Positions 928 through 21,762 of a DNA stretch of 21,880 nt are shown here, one piece after another. The notes under the pieces were generated by a model, which was not told the origin of the DNA, searched no databases, and saw only the letters and a list, made by a program, of their open reading frames with translations. Numbering within the stretch: position 1 is the stretch's first letter; the number at the start of each line of letters is the position of its first letter. The position numbers and the translations under genes were made by a program. The DNA comes from Myxococcota bacterium (lineage in GTDB: Bacteria; Myxococcota_C; UBA6777). The stretch is taken from contig CAUJFU010000287.1 of assembly GCA_963169055.1 (NCBI GenBank), forward strand, positions 1 to 21,880, in the 5' to 3' direction.

Positions 928-2535
<1,608 letters not shown>

Positions 2536-3402
2536 TTAGAGAGCGGCAGCCCCGCTGATGATCTCGACAAGTTCGGTGGTGATCGCGGCTTGTCGGGCGC
2601 GGTTGAATTTGAGCGTGAGTTTTTCGACGAGTTCGCCAGCGTTTTTGGTGGCAGAATCCATCGCGCTCATCCGAGCGCCCATCTCAGCGGCGAAGGATTC
2701 ACGCAACGCACGGAAGATCTGGGTGTTGACGTGAAGTGGCAGCAAGTAGCCCAAGAGTTCATCGCGGCTTGGCTCGTAGAGGTAGTTGTCTGCGAGAGGT
2801 TCAAGATAAGCGTCTTCGGCGTAAGGGACGATCGGAAGGAGTTGTTCGTACATCGGTTTTTGGCTGATGACGGACTTGAACTCGTTATAGATGATCACGA
2901 GGCGATCGTATTTGTTGTCGAGGTAATCTTGAATCAAGGAGCGCGAGATCTTGTCGGTATTTTCGGCGTTGAGGGGATCGAATGCGCCGCGAAAATACGT
3001 ACCGAGTTTGTGGGGACGTCTGCGGAAATACTCTTGGGCTTTGCGTCCAGCGAAGACCAGTTCGAGGCTATCGAATTGGCCCTTGTGTTCGGCGATGTAG
3101 CGTTCGGTGGCTTTGATCAGGTTGGAGTTAAAACCACCACACAAGCCCCGATCAGCGCTGATCACGAGAAGGCGGACGCGCTTTGTGGAGCGGGGCAACA
3201 GAAGGGGATGGGCCTCGTGTTCGACCGAGGCAGCAAGGCGGCTGATCGTTTGAAAAAGCTGGAGGGCGTAGGGCCGTCCTTGCATGAGGGACTCTTGGGC
3301 GCGGCGCAGCTTGGCTGCGGCCACCATCTTCATGGCTTTGGTGATTTGTTGGGTATTTTTGACGGAGGTGATCCGTTTGCGGATTTCTTTGAGATTGGCC
3401 AT
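2536..3402 (-). CDS. atpG: F1Fo ATP synthase gamma subunit
   Basis: 288 aa. Typical gamma N-terminus MANLKEIRKRITSVKNTQQITKAMKMVAAAKLRRAQ and conserved C-terminal helix. Sits between atpA and atpD. Confidence 0.93.
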   Translation of the reverse strand: MANLKEIRKRITSVKNTQQITKAMKMVAAAKLRRAQESLMQGRPYALQLFQTISRLAASVEHEAHPLLLPRSTKRVRLLVISADRGLCGGFNSNLIKATERYIAEHKGQFDSLELVFAGRKAQEYFRRRPHKLGTYFRGAFDPLNAENTDKISRSLIQDYLDNKYDRLVIIYNEFKSVISQKPMYEQLLPIVPYAEDAYLEPLADNYLYEPSRDELLGYLLPLHVNTQIFRALRESFAAEMGARMSAMDSATKNAGELVEKLTLKFNRARQAAITTELVEIISGAAAL

Positions 3403-3483
3403 GATCGCCTGCCTGCGCTAAGGGGAGCAAAGAGCCGAGGGGACGGCTCTTTGCATCGATTTGGAGGATCTCCAAAGTCCCGA

Positions 3484-5064
3484 TTAGTTGGTTTCGAGGT
3501 TATGCTCTTTGACGAAGATGCTGAGATAAGATCGGATGGATTCTTCGATCTTTGCGGCGAGTTCGTCAGTGAGTTTTTGTTTGTCGCGGATCGTGGTGTA
3601 GACTTCGGGGAATTGATCGTTGACGTGTTGGAGCAGGCCCTTCTCAAACTCGCGGATTTTGTGGACAGGAAGGGTATCAAGGAAGCCCTTGCTGCCGGCA
3701 TAGATGGAGACGATCTGCTGTTCGACAGGGAGGGGAGCGTATTGGTTTTGTTTGAGGAGTTCGGTCAGACGGTCACCACGGGAAAGCTGGGCTTGGGTGG
3801 CTTTGTCGAGGTCGGAGCCGAATTGGGCGAAGGCTTTCACGGCGCGGTATTGGGCGAGATCGAGGCGGAGGGTTCCTGCGATCTTTTTCATGGCGCCGAT
3901 TTGGGCGTTTCCACCGACGCGAGAGACGGAGATCCCGACGTTGATCGCGGGACGGATGCCTGCGTTAAACAAGTCGGTTTCGAGGAAGATCTGACCATCG
4001 GTGATGGAGATGACGTTGGTGGGGATATAAGCGGAGACGTCGCCCGCTTGGGTTTCGATGATCGGGAGGGCGGTGAGGGAGCCACCGCCACCTGTGAAGC
4101 CCATCTTTTTCCAGACTTTTTCGTCGGAAGTGATCTTGGCGGCGCGTTCGAGCAAGCGGCTGTGGAGATAGAAGACGTCACCGGGATAAGCTTCGCGACC
4201 GGGGGGACGACGAAGCAAGAGGGACATCTGACGGTAGCTGACGGCGTGTTTGGAAAGGTCATCATAAACGAGGAGAGCGTGGCGTCCGCTATCGCGGAAG
4301 AATTCGCCCATGGTGACGCCCGTGTAGGGGGCGAGGAATTGCTGTGGGGCGGGTTCCGAGGCGGAAGCGACGACGATGGTGGTGTAATCCATCGCGCCAT
4401 TTTCTTCGAGGATGGTTTTGACGCGGGCGACGGTGGATTGTTTTTGACCGATAGCGACATAGATGCAGAAGACGGGCTTATCGGTTTTGTGGGTGCCTTT
4501 TTGGTTGATGATGGTGTCGATGGCGACGGCAGTTTTGCCGGTTTGACGGTCACCGATGATCAACTCGCGTTGTCCGCGACCGATGGGGATCATGCCATCG
4601 ATGGCCTTGAGGCCGGTTTGAAGGGGTTCGTGGACGGATTCGCGAGAGACGATCCCGGGGGCTTTGAGTTCGACGCGGCGGCTGAGTTCAGTTTGGAGGG
4701 GGCCTTTGCCATCGACGGGGATTCCGAGGGCGTTGACGACGCGACCGATAAGGGCTTCACCGACAGGGACTTCGACGATGCGGCCTGTGCGCTTGACGGT
4801 ATCGCCTTCTTGGATGCCGTTGTCGCTGCCCAAGATCACGGAACCGACGTTGTCTTCTTCCAAGTTGAGCACCATGCCCATGACACCACCGGGGAACTCA
4901 AGAAGTTCTCCAGCCATGGCTTGGCTAAGGCCGTGGATACGGGCGATCCCGTCACCGACGGCGAGGATGGTACCCGTTTCAGCGATCTCCATCCCTTGAT
5001 CGTAGTTTTCGATTTGTTTGCGTATAATCTGGCTGATCTCTTCAGCGCGGAGCTCCATAGCCAT
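3484..5064 (-). CDS. atpA: F1Fo ATP synthase alpha subunit
   Basis: 526 aa. Walker A GDRQTGKT. Conserved alpha-subunit sequence end to end. AGGAAA RBS 8 nt before the ATG at 5064. Confidence 0.95.
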
Positions 5065-5094
5065 GGCTTTTTTTCCTCAATGGTTGCGAACAGA

Positions 5095-5646
5095 TCAGGC
5101 GATCTGCGAAAGCAAGTGATTCTTCATATTTGCGAAGCGGCTCTTGACGCTGCCATCGTAGATACGGTTTCCGACGCGGGCGATCATACCGCCGATCAGG
5201 TCGGGGTTGGTATCGAGGTGCAACACAACGGTGCGGCCTGTTTGTTTGGCAAAGATCTGTTTGAGCGATTGCTGTGTGGATTCGTCGAGTGTTTGGGCCG
5301 AAGTGACGTGGACGTGAACGATATCGTTGCGGGCATCCAAGAGTTCTTGATATTGGGAGCAGATCTCGGTGAAGAGTTCTGTGCGTTTCTTTTCGATCAA
5401 AAAGAACAGGAACTTTTGGGTTTGGGGGAGAAAGTCGAGTGGTTTAGCAAGGGCGGAGAGGATCGCGATGCGCTGTGCGGGGGCATACACCGGGTTGAGG
5501 AAGATGTCGTTCAGCTCGGGGTGTTGCGTGAGTTGTTTTGCGAACGCATGAAGTTGTGTGGCGATCTCTTCGGTTCGTTGTTCAGCGAGGGCGATCTGAA
5601 AGAGCGCTTTGGCGTAGCGATGGGCAAATAAGGAGTGTTGTTTCAC
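5095..5646 (-). CDS. atpH: F1Fo ATP synthase delta (OSCP) subunit
   Basis: 183 aa. Delta-like N-terminal helical domain (YAKALFQIALAEQ...). Position between atpF and atpA. 4-bp overlap with atpF (ATGA). Confidence 0.85.
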   Translation of the reverse strand: MKQHSLFAHRYAKALFQIALAEQRTEEIATQLHAFAKQLTQHPELNDIFLNPVYAPAQRIAILSALAKPLDFLPQTQKFLFFLIEKKRTELFTEICSQYQELLDARNDIVHVHVTSAQTLDESTQQSLKQIFAKQTGRTVVLHLDTNPDLIGGMIARVGNRIYDGSVKSRFANMKNHLLSQIA

Positions 5647-6272
5647 GATTGGGCCCCCAACTGTTTGAGATAATCGCTTTGGAGACGGCGTTGATCGTCG
5701 TCGTTGATCTTGGATTGGAGGAGCGCAAAAGCATCATCGAAAGAGCGGTCGAGGAGAGTGCGTTGCATCTCAGATTGCATACGGGCCATCTCTTGGGCGA
5801 CTTGGTTGCGGACATCCTCGATGCGTCGGTTGCTTTTGCGTTCGGCTTGGGAACGCATCTCGGCGGTTTCTTCGGAGGCAAGTTGTTTTGCGCGTTCGAG
5901 GATCGAGGCTTTTTCTTGTTCGACGTTTGCGAGTTTCTGTTGGATATCGTTGTAGCGGAGGGCGATCTCATCATCGCGTTCGTTGAAGGCGACGATGGCG
6001 TCGGCGATCTCTTTGCGGCGTTTTTGGAGATGGACAAGAAAGTCGGGCAGAGCACGGGAAAGGATCAGGTACAACAAGAGTCCGAGGTTGGAAAAAGGAA
6101 GGATCAGATTTTTACAGATCACATGGGTAGGCGATCCAGCGGGAGTTGCGTAATAGATGGCGTAGCTAAAGACCATCAACGCGAACAACGCGAGCGGGAT
6201 CATATCGTGGTTACGGAGAAGGAAACTGGAGGGCGCAGCGTTGGGGGCTGTGCTTTGTGTGGTCTGGCTCAT
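5643..6272 (-). CDS. atpF: F1Fo ATP synthase Fo subunit b
   Basis: 209 aa. N-terminal TM helix (IPLALFALMVFSYAIYY) followed by a long charged coiled coil. AAGGA RBS 9 nt upstream. The N-terminal ~25 aa extension before the TM is unusual; the start could be internal. Confidence 0.8.
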   Translation of the reverse strand: MSQTTQSTAPNAAPSSFLLRNHDMIPLALFALMVFSYAIYYATPAGSPTHVICKNLILPFSNLGLLLYLILSRALPDFLVHLQKRRKEIADAIVAFNERDDEIALRYNDIQQKLANVEQEKASILERAKQLASEETAEMRSQAERKSNRRIEDVRNQVAQEMARMQSEMQRTLLDRSFDDAFALLQSKINDDDQRRLQSDYLKQLGAQS

Positions 6273-9081: not shown

Positions 9082-9208
9082 ATGTTCCCTTCTCAATCCG
9101 CTGAAACAGGCAAGAACTCAATCGTAGCGGTTGATTCGATCGACACATTCGTCCCAATACTTCGCCTGTTTCTGCAACGGCGACCTACCTAACCAGCACG
9201 AGGGATCC

Positions 9209-9979
9209 ATGTTTACCGTTGTGGTCCAAGAAAAGGGTGGAAAATCCCAGCGATTGCAGTTCAACAAGAACGAGATCACCGTCGGACGGGTCCAAGGAAA
9301 CGATATCGTTCTCCCCAAAGGCAACGTCTCCAAACGCCACTCCAAGATCGTCTTCAAAGAAGGCAAATTCATCGTCGTCGACCTGAAAAGCACCAACGGC
9401 ACCTACGTCAACGGCCACAAGATCGCATCTCCCCAAGTGATCAAAAGTACCGATAAAGTCTTCATCGGCGATTTTGTGATCGAGATCGAAGAAGGCGCGA
9501 ACGGAGAAGCAGCGATGGGCGCTCCCCCTCCCATGCCCGGCCCTGCGCCCGTTCCACCGGGTCCACCATCCCCTCCCGGACCTCCCGGGGGAGGACCGAT
9601 GATGCCTCCTCCCGGTGGCCCACCGCGCCAAGCCCCACCGATGGGTCCGCCCATGACAGGCCCTCAACCCCCCGTTGGAGCACGTGGACCTGCCCCGATG
9701 CCTCCCGGCCCTCCCCCCGGTGGACCTCCCGGCCCGCCTCCGTTGTCTGGCCCACGCCCCGGCGGCCCTCCTCCCGGACCGATGGCCGGCCCCCCTCCTG
9801 GAATGCCCAACGGTGGCTCGTCCATGCCTGTTCGTGCAGGGATGTGGAACGAAGTTGCAGCGCAAGGTGGCCCAGCTTATCACTACCTCAAAGTCCAAGG
9901 CGGCTGGTTGATCGTCACCTCCGCAGGTGCCGTCTTTGTCAACGACCCACAACACCAATTCGCCCCAGTCCCTGTTTGA
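9209..9979 (+). CDS. FHA-domain protein with long Pro/Gly-rich linker and conserved C-terminal segment
   Basis: N-terminal FHA signature (ITVGRVQGNDIVL...VSKRHSKIVF...DLKSTNGTYVNGHKI). About 130 aa of low-complexity PPGPPGG-type sequence. Track start 9131 trimmed to ATG 9209 (MFTVVVQ), which has a GAGGGA RBS 4 nt upstream. Confidence 0.8.
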   Translation: MFTVVVQEKGGKSQRLQFNKNEITVGRVQGNDIVLPKGNVSKRHSKIVFKEGKFIVVDLKSTNGTYVNGHKIASPQVIKSTDKVFIGDFVIEIEEGANGEAAMGAPPPMPGPAPVPPGPPSPPGPPGGGPMMPPPGGPPRQAPPMGPPMTGPQPPVGARGPAPMPPGPPPGGPPGPPPLSGPRPGGPPPGPMAGPPPGMPNGGSSMPVRAGMWNEVAAQGGPAYHYLKVQGGWLIVTSAGAVFVNDPQHQFAPVPV

Positions 9980-16562: not shown

Positions 16563-18332
16563 TCAGTCTCGGGGGATCAGTTGGGGCTTCAGGATCACTT
16601 TGTTGTCTTTGACGGCCACATCAAACGCAACGCCAAGGCAATCGTATTGTTTGCGGAAGGTGGCCGCATTTTGGCGCAGTTTGTCCAAGAACCGCTCTTG
16701 ATCGAGCAAAGAAGTGTCTTCGCCTGTTTGTTCTTTCGCTTTGGCATAGCGTTGAAAGACTTGTTGGTAATGTACTTCGGGTTCGTGAAGGGCCATCTGA
16801 ACTTCTGGCGAAGACAGCGAAAGAGTGGCTTCGTGTTGACGAGGGATATCTTGAACGGAGGCTTCTTGGATCTCGACGACTTGGTTGTGCAGTTGAAAAA
16901 AGAGACGATTGAGTGTTGCTGCAAGCGAACCGACCGCGCCCGGGAAGCTTTCAACGAAGGCGACTTGTAGATTTCCTGTGCGGTAGATATCAAGAAGTTG
17001 TTCTTCCAGATCAAACAATTGCTTGTCTGTTTTGCCAGCCCCCGGCAACAACAACAACAGCAGCAACAACACAAACCCTACAGCCACCGACCCCATCAAG
17101 ATCAAGTTCTGCTCCAAAAAGCCTTCCCACCCAGAACGGCTCTGCAACACGGCCAACCCGATCTTTCCGCCATCCATCTTCAAAGACAGCGCGTCGTAGT
17201 TTTTGATTCCAAGCTGTACTGCATTTCCTTCTTTTTTCATCTCCAACAAAAACTTGCCCGCCGCTGAAGCAAGCAAGGTTTGAACGGACGCTTTTTCTTT
17301 GAGCGAACTCCCAAGAATCTGGCCTTTGGGCAAAAAGAATACTAATTCGACCGATGTTCCGAAGATTGGAGACTTGAGGATGTAAGCAAAGCGATCATCG
17401 ATCACAAAGGCTTGTGTGAAGATCCCCAAAAGCCTCGCAACAGCGGGAGATTGGGCAGTAGTGGCAGGAGCAGGTGTGGGCTTGTCGTCTTCCGCAGCTT
17501 GTGCAAAACGTTGTTGCAACGAGGGCATCCGCCAAGAGCTTTTGGATTTCTTTTTCGAGGCATAACAGGCACATTTCTCTTTTTGCTCAAGGCACTTCTT
17601 CTTGTTGTCGCGCTTTGCGCAGACCTTCAAGCAAGCCCAGATCTTTCCAGCAGGACAGGCTTGTTTGTCAGGTTTGCTGCTTTGTTTGCGGGGCGCGGGT
17701 TCTTCTTCCTTGTCGCCATCGCCCTCTTTTTTGCCACTGTCTTCCTCTTTTTTGTCGCCATCTCCGGCTTTTTTATCGCCATCTCCCTCTTTTTTGTCAC
17801 CCTCTCCAACTTTCGAGGCAGGCGCAGCGCTCGGGATGCCAAAAACAGGAACATGCACGAGAAGGTAGGCTTTGTCTTTGGAGACAAGCACGCCCTGCGA
17901 AGATATCCCATCCTTGGAGGCTTCGACATTATCCAAGGCGACGCCCTCAGGCGCGTTTGCGGAGAGCGCGATCACAGCGGCTTTTTCATCCGATAGCGCA
18001 GCAAAGGAGGTTCCGAGCTTTTCTGCTGCCTTTGAAGAGGCCGCACCGACAACAGAGGCGAGAAAAGCAGTCGCTTGCTTTTTACGTTCTTCTCCTTGCG
18101 CCCCAAAGATCGTGGCAAGACGGGCATCTTTGAGATGGGCCGAAGCCAAAGAGATCTGTTGCAAGCCCAAGAGTTTGATGGATTGTTGTGCGCTGCGCGC
18201 CTGCTGCTGCAAAGAAGGCTGCGCAACGTTGGCTTGATAAGCATCTAAGCCTTGTCGGAAGAAAAAGACTGCGGCTCCTGCGCCCAACAACAAAGCGAAA
18301 AAGAGCATCCAGACGATCCGCGAACGGGACAT
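16563..18332 (-). CDS. Two-TM membrane protein: periplasmic region with KKEGDGD acidic repeats and a Cys-rich basic segment, poly-Leu TM2, HAMP-like domain, ~100-aa C-terminal domain
   Basis: TM1 MLFFALLLGAGAAVFFF. Repeats GDKKEGDGDKKAGDGDKKEEDSGKKEGDGDKEEE. Cys-rich CPAGKIWACLKVCAKRDNKKKCLEQKEKCACY. TM2 LILMGSVAVGFVLLLLLLLLPG. HAMP-like LFDLEEQLLDIYRTGNLQVAFVESFPGAVGSLAATLNRLFFQL. GGAG RBS upstream. Confidence 0.7.
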   Translation of the reverse strand: MSRSRIVWMLFFALLLGAGAAVFFFRQGLDAYQANVAQPSLQQQARSAQQSIKLLGLQQISLASAHLKDARLATIFGAQGEERKKQATAFLASVVGAASSKAAEKLGTSFAALSDEKAAVIALSANAPEGVALDNVEASKDGISSQGVLVSKDKAYLLVHVPVFGIPSAAPASKVGEGDKKEGDGDKKAGDGDKKEEDSGKKEGDGDKEEEPAPRKQSSKPDKQACPAGKIWACLKVCAKRDNKKKCLEQKEKCACYASKKKSKSSWRMPSLQQRFAQAAEDDKPTPAPATTAQSPAVARLLGIFTQAFVIDDRFAYILKSPIFGTSVELVFFLPKGQILGSSLKEKASVQTLLASAAGKFLLEMKKEGNAVQLGIKNYDALSLKMDGGKIGLAVLQSRSGWEGFLEQNLILMGSVAVGFVLLLLLLLLPGAGKTDKQLFDLEEQLLDIYRTGNLQVAFVESFPGAVGSLAATLNRLFFQLHNQVVEIQEASVQDIPRQHEATLSLSSPEVQMALHEPEVHYQQVFQRYAKAKEQTGEDTSLLDQERFLDKLRQNAATFRKQYDCLGVAFDVAVKDNKVILKPQLIPRD

Positions 18333-18463: not shown

Positions 18464-19258
18464 CTAAGATTTCTTCTCTTCTACAGAAGTCGCCAACGTC
18501 GATTCCTTCGACATGAAGGGCTTGAACAACTCGATAGGCAAAGGGATGATCGTATTGATGGCATTTTGCGTCGAAGCGATCTCCAAGATGGTTTGCAGAT
18601 AACGCAACTGGAGCGACATCGGGTGTTTCTCCATGATATCCGCTGCTTCGCCGAGCCTTGCGGAGGCTTGAAATTCGCCTTCTGCGTTGATCACTTTGGC
18701 CCGTCGTTCGCGCTCAGCTTCGGCTTGACGCGCCATCGCCCGCACCATCTCCGTGGGCAAGTCGACATGTTTGAGTTCGACCGTCGACACCTTGATGCCC
18801 CAAGGACCCGTCTGTTTGTCGAGGATCTCTTGCAAGCGCTCGTTGATCTTATCCCGCTCCGACAATAGATCATCCAGATCCAATTGGCCCAACACATCGC
18901 GCAATTTGGTTTGTGCCATCTGGCTTGTTGCGTAACGATAATCGACCACCGTTGTAATCGCCTTATCGGGCGCTATCACCCGATAATACACCACAGCGTT
19001 GACCTTCACGGATACGTTGTCGCGTGTGATGATGTCTTGCGTCGGAACATCCGCTGTCACCGTACGCAGATCCACACGTTCCATCGTGTCCACCATCGGA
19101 ATCAACAAGATCATTCCTGGGCCTTTGACCGCTGACAATCGACCCAAACGAAACACCACACCTCGCTCATACTCCCGCAAGATGCGAAACATCGTTGGGA
19201 TCACCATCAACAAAAATGCGGCCAAAAGGCCCAACGCCATCGAGATAGCTGGATTCAT
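18464..19258 (-). CDS. SPFH/band-7 (stomatin-like) membrane protein
   Basis: 264 aa. N-terminal TM. Conserved stomatin core ([14 protein letters not shown]...[49 protein letters not shown]...). C-terminal coiled coil with [17 protein letters not shown]. Confidence 0.9.
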
Positions 19259-19296: not shown

Positions 19297-20661
19297 CTAT
19301 TCGGATTTCTCAGACACTTGCTCAACATGCAACAACAACCCGTCCATCGCAACCACCCGCACACGCGATCCCTTGGCGACCTCCTGTTTTGCACGAGCAT
19401 TCCAAAGTTCCCCGTCGATAGAAACTTTGCCCTCCCCCCGAATATCGGCATACGCGAGTCCCTCACGACCCACCAAAGATCCGACTCCCGAGAAAACAGG
19501 CTTGTGGTAAGTCCGCAACACAGCCACCAACACCCCGCCCAGCAACAGCGCCATCACCAAGAGCGTCGGTACGATCATCATCAAGGATATCCGCAGATTC
19601 GGATCAGGCGAATCAATCAAAAAGATCGATCCCACCGCCAACGAGATCAGCCCCCCCAAAAACAACACCCCAAAAGTCGGCGTAAAAAGCTCGGCCACCA
19701 ACAACAACAACCCAAGCCCCATCAACGCCAATCCACCGTAATTAATCGGCAAGACCTGCATCGCAACAAACGACAAAAACAAACAGATCGCCCCAAATAC
19801 CCCGGGAAAGATCGCCCCCGGGTGATAGATCTCCATCACGATCCCCAACATCCCAAACGTCAACAAAAAGTACGCAATATTCGGGTCCGCGAAAAAGTTC
19901 ACGACGCCTTGTTTGAACGTCATCTGCTTGCGCTCGATCGGTAGTGTCCGCGTACGCAAACGAAGCTCGCGCTGCCCGACACGCACCATGCGCCCATCCA
20001 CCTTTTGCAAAAGATCTTGTGTATTTGAGGCGATCAGATCGATCACCTTCAAAGACAGCGCTTCATCCGACGTCACCGAATCGCTCTCCAAAACAGCTTT
20101 CCGCGCCCACGCCACGTTGCGTTGACGTTGTTTTGCGATGGCCGCCACAAATGCAACCGTGTCATTTTCGATCTTCTTCGCAAGATGTTTTCCGCCCGAA
20201 GCTTCGGGATCTTTGCCGCCCCCCGTCACAGGATGCGCGGCCCCAATATTCGTCCCGGGACTCATCGCCGCGATATGTCCTGCAAGCGTAATAAACACCC
20301 CTGCGCTCCCCGCACGCGCTCCTGAAGGCGTGACAAAAACCAAAACGGGGATCTCCGCGTTCAAGATCGATTTGACGATCGAACGCGTTGCTTGCAAAAA
20401 ACCTCCCGGCGTGTCCATCTCCAGCACCACCACAGCAGCCCCTTGAGACGGGGCTTTGCGGATCGCCTCGCCGATATAATCAGCGGTTCCCGCGTTGATA
20501 CTTCCCACCACAGATATCACCAACGCTTTTTGCCCCGCAGCTTCGGCAGAAGGGCGACTTGTTGCGCCAAGCAACAGATGCACCAAAGGCACAAGCCACA
20601 ACCACGCGCCCCATCGTCCAAGCGCCCGATGGCATCGCTGCCATCGCTGCCATCGCACCAT
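19297..20661 (-). CDS. NfeD-family membrane-bound ClpP-class serine protease (stomatin operon partner)
   Basis: Signal/TM, then a ClpP-like domain ([22 protein letters not shown]...[12 protein letters not shown]...[40 protein letters not shown]). Multi-TM region. C-terminal OB-fold-like domain ([17 protein letters not shown]). Track start GTG 20712 revised to ATG 20661 ([10 protein letters not shown]), with GGAGA 7 nt upstream. Confidence 0.85.
20633..20659. repeat. 9-bp tandem repeat (catcgctgc x2 plus an imperfect third copy) at the NfeD start
   Basis: Read from sequence. Encodes RWQ-RWQ-R at the inferred N-terminus of NfeD. Confidence 0.8.
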
Positions 20662-20784
20662 CCACCGTCTCCGCATCTTGATGATCGACACCGTTCCTCC
20701 TTGCCATCTCACCCGAAAAGCTGAAAAGCCCCACCATCAAGGCTTTACGAGAACACCTGTTTTTTGGGGCCGACTGCGTAAGCC

Positions 20785-21762
20785 CTATCCAAGCTCACTT
20801 TCCCATACATTTCGCAGCACCGACAAACATTCTTGTAAGTCTGTCCATGCGTCTTTTTTGGACATGGGGTATTTGAATAAATGCAACGGGTGGAACATCG
20901 AAAAGATCAAGTAATCCTTGCCTAGGATCTGTCTTTCGACCACATGCCCATGTAGCGACTGAAACTTCGCCTCTTTTTCTTCCTGCAGCACTTGTGCGGC
21001 CTTTACGCCCAAGGTCACGATCAGATCGGGCTGGATCACATCGATCTTTTCATGCAACATCGGCGTATAATCCTGCAACTGCTCCCACGAAGGGTTGAAG
21101 ATGCCCGTTGCCTCTGATTTTTCCTCAAACATCGGTCGGCACGTGACGATCGGCGTAATGTACGCTTCCGCAGCCCGCAATCCCACCGATCGCATCATAC
21201 CTTCTAAGATGCGCCCTGCCCTGCCCTGCAAAGGTTGCCCGCGCAGATCTTCCTCGATGTTGGGGCCTTCATACACCCACATCAGACGCGCATCCACAGG
21301 ACCACGCCCCAAGACCTGTTGTTTGCAACTCAACCGTTGGCGCACACAAGCCTCACAGCGCGGTAAGCGCGCATGGATCGCATCCAGACGCTGTTGGCGT
21401 TCGGCGTGTTCTTGTTGCGAGATCTTGCGCAATGTCGAAAAGGTGATCGGTCGCAGATCTACAAACCTATTTGGGACCTGCGAGGCCACCGTTCGCTGCG
21501 AAGGCATCGCAGTATCCGATGACGGACGGCGAACCGAGCCATTTGTCGGCAATGGCTCGGAAGGATGGCCGCTTTCGGCTTCTTGTCGCCCCGTCAACGC
21601 AAGACGCTGCTCCGACAGAGACGGGAACTGTAGTGCGTTCTTCTGCTCGTTTGTCGGGCTTTGGGAAGAGAGCGGAACAGAAGTCGCTCCCCCCGCAGAA
21701 GTTTCCTTGATGCGCTTTTCTTCCGCTCCATCCGCAGAGAACGAAAGGCTCGCGATGCGCAA
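20785..21762 (-). CDS. Family-4 uracil-DNA glycosylase (UdgA-type, Fe-S) with a long low-complexity N-terminal extension
   Basis: C-terminal half carries the family-4 motif VYEGPNIEEDLRGQPLQGRAGRILEGMM (GE[AG]PG..ED..G.PFVG.AG..L) and HPLHLF near the C-terminus. Cysteines (CEACVRQRLSC) are consistent with the Fe-S ligand region. The first ~130 aa are S/P/Q-rich. The true start is uncertain; the reading frame may extend toward the window edge. Confidence 0.65.
   Translation of the reverse strand: MRIASLSFSADGAEEKRIKETSAGGATSVPLSSQSPTNEQKNALQFPSLSEQRLALTGRQEAESGHPSEPLPTNGSVRRPSSDTAMPSQRTVASQVPNRFVDLRPITFSTLRKISQQEHAERQQRLDAIHARLPRCEACVRQRLSCKQQVLGRGPVDARLMWVYEGPNIEEDLRGQPLQGRAGRILEGMMRSVGLRAAEAYITPIVTCRPMFEEKSEATGIFNPSWEQLQDYTPMLHEKIDVIQPDLIVTLGVKAAQVLQEEKEAKFQSLHGHVVERQILGKDYLIFSMFHPLHLFKYPMSKKDAWTDLQECLSVLRNVWESELG

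Follow-up and report, generated by a model that had tools for sequence, protein, structure and literature searches.

The window analysed here, a stretch of 21,880 nt from a member of the Myxococcota (lineage UBA6777; contig CAUJFU010000287.1 of assembly GCA_963169055.1), encodes on its minus strand a 589-residue protein that can be read as a two-pass inner-membrane receptor of a divergent MXAN_5187 subfamily with a non-enzymatic, interaction-based output (probability about 0.6). Its structural identity, i.e. a member of the MXAN_5187 family with two transmembrane (TM) segments, a dCache-like sensor domain and a HAMP segment, is assigned with considerable confidence. The proposed mechanism of signalling and interaction is tentative, at slightly under even odds. 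An earlier description of the gene, made from the letters of the window and here called the sequence-only reading, had presented it as a HAMP-domain membrane protein without a recognisable output domain.

The last part of that description did not hold up, as the C-terminus is the domain that defines the MXAN_5187 family: the NCBIfam model NF041621 (MXAN_5187_C_dom) matches residues 519-584 of 589 with 62.1 bits, against a cutoff of 30. The model of the full-length family, NF041620, has a cutoff of 200 bits; here it gives 41.2, from a match confined to the C-terminal 78 residues. Full-length homology emerges from profile-profile comparison. An alignment of 10 subfamily sequences, compared by hhalign with 85 MXAN_5187-family proteins, gave a probability of 100% and an E-value of 7.7e-54 over 487 columns, from TM1 to the C-terminus minus an insertion. 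The window protein thus belongs to the MXAN_5187 receptor family, as one of its divergent members. All 85 family members scanned match both NCBIfam models, and relative P0014 matches NF041620 end to end with 165 bits. The Pfam domains found among the 85 are dCache_3 (9 proteins), CHASE4 (7), sCache_3_2 (5) and HAMP (2).

A word-index search identified one close ortholog at 91% identity (a hypothetical protein from a Myxococcota metagenome-assembled genome, MAG) and two at 63%. A HMMER search with the alignment of close orthologs returned 408 cluster representatives at E <= 1e-3, of which a handful (P0006-P0011) are full-length relatives at 26-33% identity; the remainder share the C-terminal domain only. 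The loci from species genomes all belong to Myxococcota, under the labels Myxococcales, Polyangia, Kofleriaceae, Haliangiales and 'Deltaproteobacteria' MAGs. Exactly two TM segments are predicted in 83 of 97 full-length family proteins, for which the median periplasmic length is 277 aa and the median distance from TM2 to the C-terminal domain is 135 aa. The window protein has the same TM1, two-module periplasmic domain, TM2, HAMP-like segment and C-terminal domain as the rest of the family. By contrast, its subfamily alone has an insertion of ~130 aa with six invariant Cys, the linker between HAMP and C-terminal domain is much shorter, and the C-terminal domain has an invariant Gly567 and a hydrophobic residue replacing R/K at 569. 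The subfamily also has a fixed neighbourhood of NfeD-SPFH and radical S-adenosylmethionine (SAM) genes, which other members lack. NCBIfam already lists both the family and the C-terminal domain, as hypothetical, so the protein is not of a new kind. The present analysis yielded the full-length family assignment, the cryptic HAMP, the dCache fold, the six-Cys insertion, the gene linkages, and a C-terminal domain without a solved structural relative.

The layout in the sequence-only reading (TM1 and a poly-Leu TM2 with a long periplasmic stretch between them, then a HAMP-like segment and the C-terminus) was confirmed, with a TM1-to-TM2 region of 385 aa. By hydropathy, TM2 (residues ~411-430) reads FVLLLLLLLLPG. 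The positive-inside rule would place the N-terminus, with MSRSR ahead of TM1, in the cytoplasm. Since the 385-aa region lies between TM1, with the N-terminus inside, and TM2, with the HAMP inside, it should be periplasmic. A model of the whole protein by AlphaFold2 (AF2), a monomer built on the 10-sequence subfamily alignment (mean predicted local distance difference test, pLDDT, 68.5), has a helix at residues 3-66 that comprises TM1 and a long periplasmic helix, and a TM2 helix at 400-427. Pfam detected no domain in the whole protein, which bears out the earlier statement that no kinase, methyl-accepting chemotaxis protein (MCP) or GGDEF domain is visible. Searching the full protein against PDB sequences gave nothing significant. 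In the PDB sequence searches with the full protein and with profiles of its C-terminal domain, HAMP segment and Cys module, a match to the neck repeat of DC-SIGNR (E 1e-4) was discarded as a repeat artefact, with no single stretch significant. No Rfam RNA family was found in the whole window.

The poly-Leu stretch of TM2 had been described as the product of a CAA/CAG run that is prone to slippage. The run itself is real: Tandem Repeats Finder (TRF) reports a period-3 CAA repeat at 17046-17071, which is how the TTG/CTG codons for the Leu residues of TM2 appear on the plus strand. Slippage was rejected, because the stretch has the same length, eight Leu (L8), in the window protein, the 91% ortholog and the 63% ortholog (L001 and L005 among the loci compared), while the mix of Leu codons (TTG, CTG, CTT, CTC) differs among the three. 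As judged from these sequences, the length of the poly-Leu is under selection.

The segment following TM2 is accepted as a cryptic HAMP, since remote homology, a position right after TM2 and a predicted helix-connector-helix form all point the same way. In the AF2 model TM2 is followed directly by two helices, 433-452 and 466-494, joined by a connector. The juxtamembrane segment of the window protein aligns readily with those of other family members, and PF00672 is matched by 6 of 20 homologous segments (best E-value 9.3e-5). An alignment of these 20 segments was compared by hhalign with seven canonical HAMP sequences, giving a probability of 95.2% and an E-value of 2.6e-8. Against a Pfam-verified HAMP, that of the histidine kinase at L010 (PF00672 E-value 1.1e-15), the values were 94.5% and 8.2e-8, in the expected register. 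A PDB sequence search with the profile of the HAMP segment returned nothing significant. The HAMP call of the sequence-only reading is thus supported by remote homology, though the window sequence fails the Pfam model. The check that it had proposed, for a HAMP and a cryptic output domain in the C-terminal part, yielded profile-level HAMP homology and the NF041621 domain but no Pfam HAMP match.

For the periplasmic part, structure prediction suggests a dCache-like, double-PDC domain between the two TM helices. The AF2 model has strands of a first module at residues 108-165 and a second module at 300-398, with pLDDT 60-89 in both (moderate confidence). Foldseek matched the sensor model to 6ioq, 4xmr, 3by9 and 3lid, which are dCache ligand-binding domains, with probabilities of 0.97-1.0 and target-normalised template-modelling scores of 0.44-0.50. 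Among the relatives, P0006 scores 21.5 bits with dCache_3, below the threshold of 25.7. The known dCache-HAMP receptors include chemoreceptors (Mlp24, Tlp3, McpB/C) and histidine kinases such as DctB, and like the window protein they have a double-PDC domain between TM segments, followed by a HAMP. Unlike them, the window protein has no MCP, kinase or cyclase output and instead ends in a domain of ~80 aa on a flexible linker; its sensor domain has a large insertion, and its sequence falls below threshold in the Pfam dCache and HAMP models.

The C-terminal domain is best read as the output module of the receptor family, because it is almost always terminal on two-TM sensor proteins. In 143 of the 150 top HMMER matches it lies <=2 residues from the C-terminus. 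A model of the domain built from 66 sequences (pLDDT 94.4, predicted template-modelling score 0.84) has two long helices, preceded by a short one and followed by a beta-hairpin. The preceding linker has pLDDT < 50 at residues 490-504, and in relatives it is low-complexity, variable in length and often rich in Pro or acidic residues. For that reason we infer that the domain is a tethered interaction module and is not coupled through rigid helices. Every subfamily sequence (11 of 11) has Gly567, in the context Y-D-C-L-G-V-A-F in the window and C-R-G-V in relatives; in 139 other C-terminal domains the position is occupied by A, S, T, D or G. The 139 family domains have a mean net charge of +4.3, and those of the window subfamily have net charges of +1 to +2.

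Combining these elements, the protein may act as an envelope or periplasmic sensor. A Cys-rich hairpin in the insertion, most likely disulfide-stapled in the oxidising periplasm and held on flexible tethers, would contact an anionic component of the envelope or a partner. By analogy with other dCache-HAMP receptors, the signal would pass through TM2 to a dimeric HAMP bundle. The output would be non-enzymatic, with the C-terminal domain most likely serving as a protein-interaction module whose availability is set by the state of the HAMP. Candidate partners are the radical SAM enzyme, whose gene is putatively co-transcribed, and the membrane scaffold of SPFH and NfeD.

Several points weigh against this reading. 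PF00672 has no match at E <= 1 in the full window protein, nor at E <= 10 in its isolated 65-aa juxtamembrane segment, and no Pfam dCache model (e.g. dCache_3, PF14827) matches the window protein, whether the insertion is left in or removed. HAMP domains normally signal via continuous helices, so that it is atypical for the HAMP to be followed by a flexible linker. For the C-terminal domain, the best Foldseek E-value against solved structures is 1.1, none of the matches being convincing, and a PDB profile search gave nothing significant; the protein-interaction output is therefore an argument by exclusion. The family has no functionally characterised member, and searching the literature for MXAN_5187 turned up no papers. 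SPFH, NfeD and radical SAM genes are absent beside the more distant MXAN_5187_C proteins examined. A uracil-DNA glycosylase (UDG) gene is syntenic too, and part of the gene-order conservation may thus be inherited rather than functional. Finally, homologs of the radical SAM enzyme in Planctomycetes, where they are paired with unrelated genes, suggest that the enzyme needs no MXAN_5187-type receptor to work.

The classification of bacterial transmembrane receptors rests on output domains such as kinase, MCP and cyclase. The window protein and > 400 Myxococcota sequence clusters end in a small, well-folded domain without a solved structural relative. Such a domain would define a receptor class with an orphan output, in a phylum noted for complex signalling and multicellularity. 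The subfamily provides handles for experiments in its invariant six-Cys cationic hairpin and in a conserved neighbourhood that names candidate partners. For annotation, a 'hypothetical protein' becomes an MXAN_5187 C-terminal domain-containing membrane receptor of the dCache/HAMP type. The features of the gene and its neighbours are listed in Table 1.

Table 1. Features of the receptor gene and neighbouring genes in the window (residue numbers refer to the 589-aa protein).
Feature	Position	Strand	Basis or remarks
Whole receptor gene	16563..18332	-	ATG start, 589 aa; two-TM receptor-like, divergent MXAN_5187 family member
TM1, residues ~6-25	18258..18317	-	Hydropathy; preceded by MSRSR; within continuous AF2 helix 3-66
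Long helix and first alpha/beta (PDC/Cache-like) module, residues 27-165	17838..18254	-	AF2, Foldseek, hhalign
Subfamily-specific insertion, residues ~166-298	17439..17837	-	Unaligned to MXAN_5187 profile (hhalign); disordered in AF2 except Cys hairpin
21-bp tandem repeat, G(D/E)GDKK(E/A) heptads	17710..17807	-	TRF: 4.7 copies, 75% matches, score 119
Six-Cys cationic module, residues 226-256	17565..17657	-	Invariant Cys; predicted beta-hairpin
Second alpha/beta module, residues 299-410	17103..17438	-	AF2, hhalign; sub-threshold dCache_3 match of P0006 at equivalent position
TM2, residues 411-430, including L8	17043..17102	-	Hydropathy; TTG/CTG codons (CAA/CAG run on plus strand)
Cryptic HAMP, residues 433-494	16851..17036	-	AF2 helix-connector-helix; hhalign; PF00672 matches in homologous segments
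MXAN_5187 C-terminal domain, residues 509-589, putative output module	16566..16808	-	Three helices, then beta-hairpin
NrdG-like radical SAM gene (Fer4_12), downstream	15797..16489	-	Pfam, NCBIfam; 73 nt past receptor stop codon
Stomatin-like SPFH (Band_7) gene, upstream	18464..19258	-	Pfam 1.3e-41; 131 nt ahead of receptor start codon
NfeD1b-type gene, paired with SPFH gene	19297..20712	-	Pfam NfeD1b_N, NfeD_membrane, NfeD; ClpP-like N-terminal, membrane and NfeD C-terminal domains
Family-4 UDG gene	20785..21762	-	~150-aa low-complexity N-terminal extension

The acidic repeats and the Cys-rich hairpin make up an insertion in the turn of a beta-hairpin of the sensor domain, since the wider family has nothing that corresponds to residues ~166-298. 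In the hhalign alignment, the insertion falls between the consecutive sensor strands ...YLLVHVPVF and LLGIFTQAFVID.... Its ~130 aa comprise an acidic low-complexity tether, a cationic six-Cys beta-hairpin and a tether rich in Pro and Ala. Residues 169-223 and 261-296, on either side of the hairpin, are disordered in the AF2 model. The GDGDKK repeats pointed out by the sequence-only reading are present, and their conservation in orthologs is not: the 63% orthologs have about two units fewer, and distant relatives have unrelated low-complexity sequence that is acidic or basic. On this comparison the repeats are a lineage-specific expansion of a low-complexity tether.

The Cys module, on the other hand, is conserved. 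Its Cys are at residues 226, 234, 238, 247, 254 and 256, within a Lys-rich segment of net charge +10. The sequence-only reading had correctly seen six Cys in Lys-rich sequence, and the spacing that it gave for the first and third loops (C-x5 and C-x7) is corrected here to C-x7 and C-x8, i.e. C-x7-C-x3-C-x8-C-x6-C-x-C. All six are invariant in 10 of 10 aligned subfamily sequences, down to 26% identity, and the pattern is also found in 7 further loci, so that the lack of Cys conservation, which the sequence-only reading had named among its refutations, does not apply. The spacings C1-C2 (7), C2-C3 (3) and C5-C6 (1) are fixed; variation is confined to C3-C4 (7-14) and C4-C5 (6-8). This fits a hairpin, for which AF2 predicts strands at 230-241 and 247-258 (pLDDT ~75). 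Across relatives the module has a net charge of +5 to +19 and is rich in aromatic residues. Because the region is periplasmic, and therefore in an oxidising environment, disulfides are more likely than a metal site.

No Pfam family matched the Cys module. The best PDB sequence match of its profile was AA139 (5v11), with a non-significant E-value of 0.11. AA139 is an analogue of arenicin-3 and an antimicrobial peptide that forms a beta-hairpin stapled by disulfides. Peptides of the arenicin-3/AA139 and tachyplesin types have in common with the module a C-x3-C-x8-C core, cationic character, aromatic residues and a beta-hairpin (predicted in the window module). Those peptides are secreted and have four Cys, whereas the window module has six and forms an internal loop within a membrane protein of 589 aa. 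Convergence probably accounts for the resemblance.

The position of the receptor gene between the radical SAM and SPFH/NfeD genes, all co-oriented, was already part of the sequence-only reading and was confirmed; the neighbourhood is moreover kept in distant relatives. On the minus strand of the window the order is UDG, NfeD, Band7 (SPFH), receptor, radical SAM. All 10 subfamily loci examined for it have a radical SAM gene downstream of the receptor, at a spacing that ranges from a 4-nt overlap (L008) through 4 nt (L020) to ~213 nt, and Band7 and NfeD are upstream in all 8 loci that hold enough upstream sequence. The order NfeD-Band7-receptor-radical SAM is kept in the window, L001-L004, L005, L007, L008, L009, L023 and L027, usually with a UDG gene upstream. 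In L020 and L021 the contigs end upstream of the receptor, and radical SAM is directly downstream in both. The receptor has diverged to 26-33% identity across these loci, while the neighbours are still 53-80% identical. UDG is syntenic with the NfeD-SPFH-receptor block in L007, L009, L023 and L027 at only ~30% identity. No terminator-like site was found in either intergenic gap (receptor-radical SAM or Band7-receptor); a promoter scan of the gaps likewise found nothing, a result that is uninformative for promoters not of the sigma-70 type. The link to radical SAM is the most conserved and most suggestive feature of the neighbourhood. For the wider MXAN_5187_C family, an all-against-all comparison of neighbours at 8 loci revealed no common partner. 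It did contain two unrelated synteny groups, one with HflX, an HD domain and a response regulator, the other with DsbA, a histidine kinase and a solute-binding protein.

How much of this linkage is functional bears on the first alternative, namely that the gene order reflects phylogenetic inertia and that the protein has no connection to its neighbours, being a generic receptor of the MXAN_5187 type in which one loop is idiosyncratic. This overlaps with the preferred reading of the protein as a receptor. In favour of inertia, every subfamily locus belongs to a single clade of uncultured Myxococcota, and the unrelated UDG has also been kept in L007, L009, L023 and L027. However, the order has outlasted the divergence of the receptor to 26-33% identity, the genes flanking the five-gene block differ between loci, and the junction between receptor and radical SAM is still tight, overlapping in L008 and nearly abutting in L020. 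We regard inertia as an unlikely explanation.

The upstream genes are a typical pair of a long NfeD1b and an SPFH gene, as in the NfeD-stomatin (STOPP or p-stomatin) operon (background in PMC2636767). In titles and abstracts retrieved for the NfeD-stomatin operon, there is no third or fourth member of the receptor kind. The linkage to a receptor and a radical SAM gene distinguishes the window from that operon and is seen only in the Myxococcota clade of the window. The neighbours form the adjacent, co-oriented pair by which an NfeD-SPFH operon is recognised; the receptor itself is not a known component of it. We know of no third or fourth member of the receptor kind described for such operons.

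With Band7 and NfeD1b directly upstream and co-oriented in 8 of 8 loci, the protein might nevertheless be a non-signalling, structural client or partner of the NfeD-stomatin scaffold, organised in an SPFH assembly or processed by the ClpP-like NfeD protease, e.g. at the disordered tethers around the Cys hairpin. In the AF2 model, such tethers, predicted to be accessible to a protease, do flank the conserved module. Yet its full-length homology is to a family of receptors that otherwise occur without SPFH/NfeD genes beside them, and a purely structural role would not readily account for the conservation of a HAMP-like segment. The gap to Band7 (131-360 nt) may also leave room for a promoter of its own. 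A client role seems improbable.

On the other side of the gene, the adjacent radical SAM protein is NrdG-like and belongs to a very large family, with > 7,500 matches. It scores 101.5 with the NrdG model (TIGR02491), below the cutoff of 126.1, and 56 with PflA, against a cutoff of 232; no NrdD gene was found near the radical SAM gene in any context examined. The combination of an NrdG-like neighbour and an invariant Gly567 raised the idea of a glycyl radical protein with its activase. The glycyl-radical signature is of the type R-[IVT]-[CSA]-G-Y and lies near the C-terminus. The D-C-L-G-V of the window does not fit it and the radical SAM protein is below the NrdG cutoff, so that this pairing is unlikely.

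Homologs of the radical SAM protein that are 50-56% identical occur in Planctomycetes (L022, L024, L025, L026), in every case directly upstream of fvmX6 and fvmX5. The fvmX6 and fvmX5 products are components of FtsH-vWA-MoxR ternary systems. According to a proposal by Kaur et al. (2020, eLife, PMC7159879), the radical SAM enzyme of these systems modifies a protein or peptide that an adjacent gene encodes. Besides this common radical SAM homolog, a pair of vWA (CobT_C, ~616 aa) and MoxR-like AAA_5 (~1000 aa) genes is found near the receptor in four distant relatives (L008 4975-8078, L009 13128-17813, L023 6708-11582, L027 9186-12675), convergent to the receptor-radical SAM pair or a few kb off. 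The vWA-MoxR pair is absent from the window, L001 and L007. The absence of vWA-MoxR, FtsH and fvmX genes from the neighbourhood sets the window and its closest relatives apart from the ternary systems. A relationship to fvmX6 was considered and rejected, as neither the receptor nor a 427-aa downstream gene of L027 resembles it. The PADLOC defence models matched neither the receptor nor its neighbours.

It could be, then, that the protein is a substrate or a dedicated membrane-bound regulator of the NrdG-like enzyme. In the former case the cytoplasmic C-terminal domain would undergo a radical-based modification, e.g. at the subfamily-invariant motif YDC-x-G-V-x-F-D; in the latter the receptor would gate the enzyme. 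Such a role would suit the immediate adjacency of radical SAM in 10 of 10 loci, with junctions as tight as those of L008 and L020, as well as the behaviour of Gly567, invariant in the subfamily (11/11) and variable in 139 C-terminal domains without a radical SAM neighbour. It would also parallel the modification of neighbouring gene products proposed for related radical SAM enzymes (PMC7159879). Against it stand the misfit of D-C-L-G-V to the glycyl-radical signature, the score under the NrdG cutoff (101.5 vs 126.1), and the Planctomycete homologs, which at 50-56% identity adjoin fvmX6/fvmX5 without an MXAN_5187-like protein. The six-Cys module, moreover, is periplasmic, and after membrane insertion it would be beyond the reach of a cytoplasmic enzyme. 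On balance we give little credence to this explanation.

An extension of the preferred receptor reading would join the two ideas; we hold this extension to be similarly improbable. Here the C-terminal domain would be an unrecognised receptor output, with a fold absent from solved structures, that couples envelope sensing to the radical SAM enzyme, either by recruiting or gating the enzyme at the membrane or by serving as its substrate. Sensing would occur via the tethered, disulfide-stapled cationic hairpin on the dCache domain, in the context of the SPFH/NfeD scaffold. If this were true, the system would be a receptor-controlled radical enzyme.

The weakest alternative, a membrane-tethered transcription regulator whose C-terminal domain binds DNA in the manner of a winged helix, either tethered or released, is suggested by the topology of three helices followed by a beta-hairpin and by the mean net charge of +4.3 in the 139 family domains, but is very doubtful given that the domain is nearly neutral (+1 to +2) in the window subfamily and matches no helix-turn-helix profile in Pfam or NCBIfam.

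Other genes in the window and in the related loci gave several further observations. Large secreted, Cys-rich repeat proteins are encoded near the receptor-radical SAM pair in L007 (10758-13052, minus strand), L027 (6752-8035, plus strand) and L021 (4746-7628, minus strand). The L007 protein contains eight MopE-type 'putative metal-binding' motifs, and those of L027 and L021 contain CPxSC-type repeats. In the window, a 969-aa homolog of the eukaryotic major vault protein is encoded at 11883-14792 on the minus strand (MVP_shoulder 7.6e-18, Vault_3 4e-6, weak Vault_2 and Vault_4); no NCBIfam model matches it. The vault-like gene lies beside the same genes in the 91% relative (L001-L004) and is not near the receptor in L007 or L009. 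Placed divergently between the radical SAM and vault-like genes, at 14930-15778 on the plus strand, is a gene for a protein of 282 aa. The protein has a TPR region at its N-terminus, its C-terminal half is hydrophobic and multi-pass, and it is conserved at 39% in L007, at another position.

An FHA-domain protein (9131-9979, plus strand) is 96% identical to its L007 homolog over residues 26-123. Most other proteins common to the window and L007 are 30-70% identical, and the conservation of the FHA protein is thus unusually strong. A cluster of F-type ATP synthase genes (b, delta, alpha, gamma, beta) occupies 928-6272 on the minus strand. Antisense to it, at 2500-5631 on the plus strand, is an open reading frame of 1043 aa that has no Pfam match and is probably spurious, favoured by the strong GC skew.

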